Positions 16,555-18,908 of a DNA stretch of 64,000 bases are shown here, piece after piece. The DNA lies in the NCBI RefSeq assembly GCF_003790525.1, contig NZ_CP033635.1; one strand, 5' to 3'. The notes under the pieces were generated by a model. The model was not told the DNA's origin. It saw nothing but the letters and a program-made list of their open reading frames with translations, and searched no databases. Within the stretch, counting starts at the first letter, position 1, and each line of letters begins with the position of its first letter. Source of the DNA: Escherichia coli (GTDB lineage Bacteria; Pseudomonadota; Gammaproteobacteria; Enterobacterales; Enterobacteriaceae). The position numbers and the translations under genes are program-made.

Positions 16555-17451
16555 ATGACAGACACACACTATATTGGCCGCTTCGCCCCCTCTCCTTCCG
16601 GCGAGCTTCATTTTGGTTCTCTGATTGCCGCGCTTGGCAGCTATTTGCAGGCTCGCGCCCGGCAAGGTCGCTGGCTGGTACGCATAGAAGATATCGACCC
16701 GCCTCGTGAAGTTCCCGGTGCCGCAGAGACTATCCTGCGCCAGCTGGAACATTACGGCCTGCACTGGGACGGCGACGTTCTCTGGCAATCGCAACGTCAC
16801 CACGCCTATCGCGAAGCACTCGCCTGGTTATATGAGCAAGGACTAAGTTATTACTGCACCTGCACGCGTGCGCGTATTCAAAGCATTGGCGGTATTTACG
16901 ACGGTCATTGCCGGGATTTGCATCATGGACCAGACAACGCGGCTGTGCGAATTCGGCAGTTGCATCCGGTCACGCAGTTTACTGATCAACTACGCGGAAT
17001 TATTCACGCCGACGAAAAACTGGCGCAAGAAGATTTTATTATTCATCGTCGTGATGGTTTGTTTGCCTATAACCTGGCGGTGGTGGTCGATGATCACTTC
17101 CAGGGCGTCACAGAAATTGTTCGTGGGGCAGATTTGATTGAACCGACAGTGCGACAAATCTCGCTGTACCAGCTTTTTGGCTGGAAAGTGCCAGATTACA
17201 TTCATTTACCGCTGGCGCTTAACACACAAGGCGCTAAACTTTCCAAGCAGAATCATGCGCCTGCGTTGCCGAAAGGCGATCCGCGCCCGGTGTTAATCGC
17301 GGCACTTCATTTTCTGGGTCAGCAGGTAGAAACACACTGGCAGGATTTCAGCGTCGAGCAAATCCTTCAGTCAGCCGTCAAAAACTGGACGCTGACTGCC
17401 GTGCCTGAGTCGGCAATTGTAAATTCAACATTCTCAAATGCGTCATGCTGA
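16555..17451 (+). CDS. gluQ: Glutamyl-queuosine tRNA(Asp) synthetase (GluRS paralog)
   Basis: [26 protein letters not shown] (class I HIGH-like motif); upstream ATG at 16525 lies inside the dksA terminator loop so the downstream Met is preferred. Confidence 0.8.
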
Positions 17452-17510
17452 GCTATGATTAGCCGCTATTTTTTTGTCCTGAATGATGTTTGACACTACC
17501 GAGGTGTACT

Positions 17511-18908
17511 ATTTTTACCCGAGTCGCTAATTTTTGCCGCAAGGTGCTAAGCCGCGAGGAAAGCGAGGCTGAACAGGCAGTCGCCCGTCCACAGGTGACG
17601 GTGATCCCGCGTGAGCAGCATGCTATTTCCCGCAAAGATATCAGTGAAAATGCCCTGAAGGTAATGTACAGGCTCAATAAAGCGGGATACGAAGCCTGGC
17701 TGGTTGGCGGCGGCGTGCGCGACCTGTTACTTGGCAAAAAGCCGAAAGATTTTGACGTGACCACCAACGCCACGCCAGAGCAGGTGCGCAAACTGTTCCG
17801 TAACTGCCGCCTGGTGGGTCGCCGTTTCCGTCTGGCTCATGTGATGTTTGGCCCGGAGATTATCGAAGTTGCGACCTTCCGTGGACATCACGAAGGTAAC
17901 GTCAGCGATCGCACGACCTCCCAACGCGGGCAAAACGGTATGTTGCTGCGCGACAACATTTTCGGCTCCATCGAAGAAGACGCCCAGCGCCGCGATTTCA
18001 CTATCAACAGCCTGTATTACAGCGTGGCAGATTTTACCGTCCGTGATTACGTTGGCGGCATGAAGGATCTGAAAGACGGCGTTATCCGTCTGATTGGTAA
18101 CCCGGAAACGCGCTACCGTGAAGATCCGGTACGGATGCTTCGCGCGGTTCGTTTTGCCGCCAAATTGGGCATGCGCATCAGCCCGGAAACTGCCGAGCCG
18201 ATCCCACGCCTGGCAACCTTACTGAACGATATCCCACCGGCACGTCTGTTTGAAGAATCGCTGAAACTGTTGCAAGCGGGCTACGGTTACGAAACTTATA
18301 AGCTGCTGTGTGAATATCATCTGTTCCAGCCGCTGTTTCCGACCATTACCCGCTACTTCACGGAAAATGGCGACAGCCCGATGGAGCGGATCATTGAACA
18401 GGTGCTGAAGAATACCGATACGCGTATCCATAACGATATGCGCGTGAACCCGGCGTTCCTGTTTGCCGCCATGTTCTGGTACCCATTGCTGGAGACGGCA
18501 CAGAAGATCGCCCAGGAAAGCGGCCTGACCTATCACGACGCTTTCGCACTGGCGATGAACGACGTGCTGGACGAAGCCTGCCGTTCACTGGCGATCCCGA
18601 AACGTCTGACTACGCTAACTCGCGATATCTGGCAGTTGCAGTTGCGTATGTCCCGTCGTCAGGGAAAACGCGCATGGAAACTGCTGGAGCATCCTAAGTT
18701 CCGTGCGGCATACGACCTGTTGGCCTTACGAGCCGAAGTTGAGCGTAACGCTGAACTGCAACGTCTGGTGAAATGGTGGGGTGAGTTCCAGGTTTCCGCG
18801 CCGCCAGACCAAAAAGGGATGCTTAACGAACTGGATGAAGAACCGTCACCGCGTCGTCGTACTCGTCGTCCACGCAAACGCGCACCGCGTCGTGAGGGTA
18901 CCGCATGA
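17511..18908 (+). CDS. pcnB: Poly(A) polymerase I
   Basis: Nucleotidyltransferase ORF; start assigned to the known non-canonical AUU codon ([12 protein letters not shown]); track ORF begins at an upstream TTG. Confidence 0.8.

Follow-up and report, generated by a model that had tools for sequence, protein, structure and literature searches.

Translation of pcnB, the gene for poly(A) polymerase I (PAP I), almost certainly starts at the AUU codon at 17511-17513 of the 64,000-nt stretch of Escherichia coli DNA analysed in the present study (hereafter the window; RefSeq assembly GCF_003790525.1, contig NZ_CP033635.1), being positioned there by a Shine-Dalgarno (SD) sequence and initiated inefficiently, which helps to keep PAP I scarce. 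This AUU start is correct but already known, and belongs to textbook knowledge. The confirmation obtained here means that the arrangement in the window is the standard one and that the ATT is rightly annotated as the start. The only new lead is a constraint at the nucleotide level that was found just after the start codon.

By direct reading of the sequence in the pcnB frame, the codons upstream of the gene are TGA (17484) TGT TTG (17490) ACA CTA CCG AGG TGT ACT ATT (17511), and from the ATT onward they run ATT TTT ACC CGA GTC GCT AAT TTT TGC CGC AAG GTG CTA AGC. The first-pass annotation of this DNA had placed the N-terminus of the protein at this ATT and had given the TTG as the only in-frame alternative upstream. 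Both statements stood, as the coordinates are exact, the RefSeq coding sequence (CDS) begins at the same ATT, and the stretch from the in-frame stop to the ATT contains no other ATG, GTG or TTG in frame. Three canonical in-frame codons that it had not listed lie downstream, namely GTG 17544 (codon 12), GTG 17595 (codon 29) and ATG 17664 (codon 52). Since a canonical TTG lies 21 nt before the ATT in the same frame, the sequence of the window alone does not force the AUU reading: the N-terminal peptide can be reached here from a canonical start (the TTG at -21), but cannot be so reached in 43 of the 80 species that were compared. The RefSeq gene is a 1398-nt CDS both in SMS-3-5 (PGAP) and in K-12 MG1655 (b0143), and it maps to a start at 17511. 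The ATT reading is not a matter of chance, because the RefSeq CDS starts there and the codon is invariant across all 80 species. The features of the region are collected in Table 1.

Table 1. Features at and around the pcnB start in the window.
Feature	Position	Strand	Basis or remark
Promoter-like site, -35 TTCTCA, 17-nt spacer, -10 TATGAT; overlaps the end of gluQ	17431-17459	+	Only sigma-70-like match in 17150-17750
In-frame stop TGA, closes the pcnB frame upstream	17484-17486	+	Sequence, ORF list
TTG, sole canonical in-frame codon upstream; rejected as start	17490-17492	+	Without SD, poorly conserved
Shine-Dalgarno GAGGTG, 4-nt spacer to ATT	17501-17506	+	Invariant in 80/80 species; duplex with 16S tail -9.8 kcal/mol
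ATT (AUU) initiation codon of pcnB	17511-17513	+	RefSeq CDS start, conservation in 80/80 species, NF008634 position 1, literature
pcnB CDS, poly(A) polymerase I, 465 codons + stop	17511-18908	+	ORF list, NF008634, Pfam, match to PDB 3AQK-3AQN
Codons 2-9 (TTT ACC CGA GTC GCT AAT TTT TGC), amino acids invariant, synonymous change nearly absent	17514-17537	+	Entropy in 78 species
Codons 41-46 (CGC AAA GAT ATC AGT GAA), second stretch of low synonymous change, complementary to codons 5-9	17631-17648	+	Alignment, entropy
ATG codon 52, start proposed by Liu & Parkinson 1989; possible minor internal start on pS1 transcripts	17664-17666	+	Described in PMC2939334; ATG in only 23/80 species

The identity of the gene was established with protein profiles. 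The product scored 997.1 bits on the NCBIfam PcnB equivalog NF008634, against a cutoff of 702, and its residues 1-464 aligned to profile positions 1-468 of 469, position 1 being the residue encoded by the ATT. In addition, PF01743, PF12627 and PF12626 (the PolyA_pol head, the RNA-binding region and the arginine-rich C-terminus) were all found above the Pfam gathering thresholds, and the PDB entries 3AQK-3AQN align to PcnB residues 28-442.

The first-pass annotation had also stated that the known arrangement is preserved here, and it had proposed a comparison with the K-12 start. On this comparison the start region proved base-for-base identical to MG1655, without a mismatch from the 3' end of gluQ up to and including pcnB codon 36. 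K-12 pcnB (b0143) has the same gluQ-pcnB-folK context and the same TTG, SD, spacer and ATT as the window; there is no difference at the start site, and only a few substitutions occur in gluQ, upstream of 17408. Furthermore, a 501-nt query across the site found a match at at least 95% identity in 5,424 of the 5,426 complete E. coli genomes. Because the start region is identical to that of K-12, the experiments made in K-12 apply directly here.

According to the papers that cite it, Binns & Masters 2002 (Mol Microbiol 44:1287; PMID 12068810) showed AUU initiation of pcnB experimentally, and passages in PMC2939334, PMC3561954, bioRxiv 063800, PMC5499595, PMC9764084 and PMC4245954 cite this work for the AUU. 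Several papers also cite it, in the passages concerned, for the limiting effect of AUU on the synthesis of PAP I. That AUU initiation of PAP I is known, as had been claimed for this DNA, is thus borne out by these citations. Nadratowska-Wesolowska et al 2010 (PMC2939334) reported that the AUU lies upstream of the promoter proposed in 1989, and they credited Binns & Masters 2002 with both the AUU start and the promoter pB. In E. coli, according to other papers, initiation at AUU has been confirmed for two genes only, infC and pcnB, and in reporter assays AUU initiates at ~1-2% of AUG. In the main texts of the literature on Ribo-RET, Onc112 and N-terminomics, neither genome-wide mapping of the PAP I start site nor N-terminal peptides of the protein were found.

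In the mechanism that we propose, the SD GAGGUG at 17501-17506 would position the ribosome at the AUU, and the initiator tRNA would read this codon so that the protein would begin Met-Phe-Thr-Arg-Val. As a near-cognate start codon, AUU would be discriminated against, presumably by IF3; initiation would therefore be inefficient and would contribute to the low amount of PAP I. Excess PAP I is toxic; a cell contains 30-50 molecules of the enzyme, and its over-expression is lethal (PMC3561954). According to the literature, the AUU limits pcnB expression, and its use is one of the means by which the cell holds down the amount of a toxic enzyme that tails RNA. The gene of IF3 itself, infC, shares with pcnB a non-canonical AUU start that limits translation. 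The infC codon, however, supports autoregulation by its own product, whereas that of pcnB is described simply as capping the output of PAP I. To our knowledge, no feedback loop is known for pcnB.

The strength of the ribosome-binding site was estimated from the duplex with the 3' tail of 16S rRNA. The duplex before the ATT ranks within the top 2% across the window, and yet the pcnB ribosome-binding site has been called poor in several papers; since the SD is strong on sequence and poor according to this literature, some aspect of efficiency is not captured here. The same calculation bears on the alternative that translation begins at the TTG at 17490, giving a 472-residue protein in which the ATT is an ordinary internal isoleucine codon. 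TTG is a standard bacterial start codon, the mechanical open reading frame begins at it, and UUG is named as the pcnB start in the introduction of PMC3561954. It has no SD upstream, however, and the duplex there amounts to -2.3 kcal/mol, which is the background level. PMC3561954 is inconsistent on this point, giving AUU in its discussion, and this could mislead readers.

For a comparative view, the pcnB loci of 80 Enterobacteriaceae species with 86-100% protein identity were examined, together with 8 more distant loci. All 80 species have both the ATT, at the codon that aligns with 17511, and the GAGGTG before it; the 4-nt spacer between the two occurs in ten forms. An in-frame TTG or ATG is found at -21 in 28 species (TTG in only 26), the ATG occurring in two subspecies of Salmonella, and to this extent the comparison would allow an upstream start. 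Against the TTG, in 43 of the 80 species the frame contains neither ATG nor GTG nor TTG from the nearest upstream stop to the ATT, and these species nevertheless keep the conserved N-terminal peptide; four species carry an in-frame stop at -15 or -18. In 18 species there is a 1-nt deletion (CTACGAGGTG for TACCGAGGTG) between the position of the TTG and the SD, so that any upstream reading frame is broken. At the protein level, no conservation is seen in the residues that separate the TTG from the ATT, in contrast to residues 2-13, in which the amino acids are invariant and the changes in DNA are synonymous only, with six different leucine codons at codon 13. The linker at codons 14-28 is variable and contains no stop and no frameshift in any of the 80 species. 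From these patterns of conservation upstream and downstream, translation begins at or before codon 2, and the ATT is the sole option for most species. As the ATT and not the TTG is also the start in the RefSeq and K-12 annotations and in the experiments that have been published, we regard a start at the TTG as extremely improbable and retain the AUU.

In Salmonella enterica subsp. diarizonae and arizonae (L022 and L023; ATT at 801), the in-frame ATG at -21 is without an SD, and annotation pipelines could easily choose this ATG as the start.

Among the 8 distant loci, the layout CGAGGTG-N4-ATT TTT was found also in Pantoea agglomerans, in Aeromonas veronii and in one further relative (L085). 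Three other distant relatives have an ATT with an SD-like motif before it, and two of these three also have an upstream in-frame ATG; in a fourth the start is ambiguous and the gene is called from GTG. The comparison of the 80 species and the 8 distant loci thus leads independently to the same ATT start. PMC3561954 also considers AUU a probable start of the homologues in many Proteobacteria. Gene callers had settled on any canonical codon present, which was TTG for Pantoea and Aeromonas and one of ATG, TTG and GTG for the further relatives; callers that disallow ATT mis-start pcnB. The PcnB homologue of Vibrio parahaemolyticus (L084, start at 401) has a plain ATG and is without the conserved N-terminal peptide, and therefore the AUU arrangement is not universal in Gammaproteobacteria.

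The AUU might also not be the sole start, if an additional shorter PAP I were made from the ATG at codon 52 (17664) on transcripts of the sigma-S promoter pS1, as has been suggested, or from the GTG at codon 29 (17595). pS1 lies downstream of the ATT, and its activity has been seen with sigma-S in vitro and, in vivo, in cells of the ppGpp0 type (PMC2939334); in wild-type cells, however, it gave no signal in either growth phase. On western blots, the antibody against PAP I detects two bands (PMC2939334). Codon 52 is leucine in 57 of the 80 species, and the SD duplexes are weak before both codons (-4.0 kcal/mol before codon 52, -5.0 before codon 29). In favour of codon 29, 73 of the 80 species have ATG there, and residue 28 or 29 is the first in the crystallised constructs (3AQK-3AQN); in L003, which represents the species E. 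coli, however, the codon is GTA and thus no start codon. Moreover, codons 2-13 are under strong selection at the protein level, and the full-length PAP I therefore matters. Overall, we consider additional starts unlikely, and a short isoform from codon 52 would be at best minor, condition-specific and confined to Escherichia.

Codon 29 (17595-17597) was considered separately as a hidden start and was rejected. Since the codon is GTG in the window, is GTA in another E. coli and has no good SD, it is read as an ordinary hydrophobic residue, probably a conserved one at the start of the folded domain.

With the AUU taken as the start, the codons that directly follow it were found to be unusually constrained. 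The mean synonymous entropy of codons 2-9 is 0.046 bits in 78 species, compared with a gene mean of 0.93, and this is the lowest 8-codon window in pcnB; in 100,000 random draws, no value as low was obtained. At codon 4, all 80 species retain the rare arginine codon CGA, whereas the remaining arginine codons show free variation. We consider the synonymous constraint at codons 2-9 to be real, and the near absence of synonymous change together with the retention of CGA points to selection on the nucleotide sequence itself. In the literature search no relevant prior report of synonymous constraint in pcnB was found, and a search of Rfam gave no family match in 17350-17800 at E <= 1.

Codons 2-9 and 41-46, the two stretches of pcnB with the strongest synonymous constraint, are paired with each other by RNAalifold, UCGCU with AGUGA and AUUUUUGC with GCAAAGAU (5 bp + 8 bp). 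In these helices (17524-17528/17643-17647 and 17530-17537/17632-17639), 99.6% of the cells are paired, there are no compensatory pairs, and shuffles score alike. The 201-nt fold gave z = -1.5, so that the folding energy is not significant, and some of the long-range pairs are broken without compensation in Pantoea and Aeromonas. An RNA helix between codons 5-9 and the region of codons 41-46 is thus at most a possibility. It may be that codons 2-9 and the complementary codons 41-46 mark an undescribed cis-acting element of the mRNA, either a long-range helix or an open A/U-rich landing site, which would set the efficiency of the AUU beyond the codon and the SD; we offer this as a tentative and rather doubtful interpretation. 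For the downstream stretch, the promoter pS1 is a rival cause of the constraint, as it overlaps the stretch; its placement near codons 41-46 follows from the PS1.rev primer, which maps to 17645-17668.

A hairpin predicted by RNAalifold, in which the SD is sequestered by codons 2-4 with the AUU in the loop, was also considered. It was rejected, as its energy is only -4.7 kcal/mol with z = -0.25, and as the 80-nt initiation region folds no better than its shuffles and is, if anything, less structured (z = +1.2); furthermore, it partly breaks in Aeromonas.

Upstream of the start, the promoter-like site in Table 1 probably corresponds to the published major promoter pB. If transcription starts from this site, a 5' UTR of ~45 nt is expected. 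Its GCTATGATTAGCCGCTATTTTTTT block is kept in Aeromonas and in the majority of the 80 species. At 17431-17480 of the window, the block GCTATGATTAGCCGCTATTTTTTTGTCC runs across the gluQ stop codon and holds the -10-like TATGAT; its conservation extends from E. coli as far as Aeromonas (L083, upstream of 401), and it is probably the core of the pB promoter with the start of the transcript.

Around 17.5 kb, the ORF list gives the gene order sfsA-dksA-gluQ-pcnB-folK on the + strand, and by the ORF list and the RefSeq feature tables the order gluQ-pcnB-folK is conserved. A tRNA-synt_1c (gluQ-like) gene is located upstream of pcnB in 4 of the 8 distant loci, those of Aeromonas and Vibrio included. 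At the other end of the gene, the folK start overlaps the pcnB stop by 4 nt (ATGA, 18905-18908), which suggests translational coupling of both genes.
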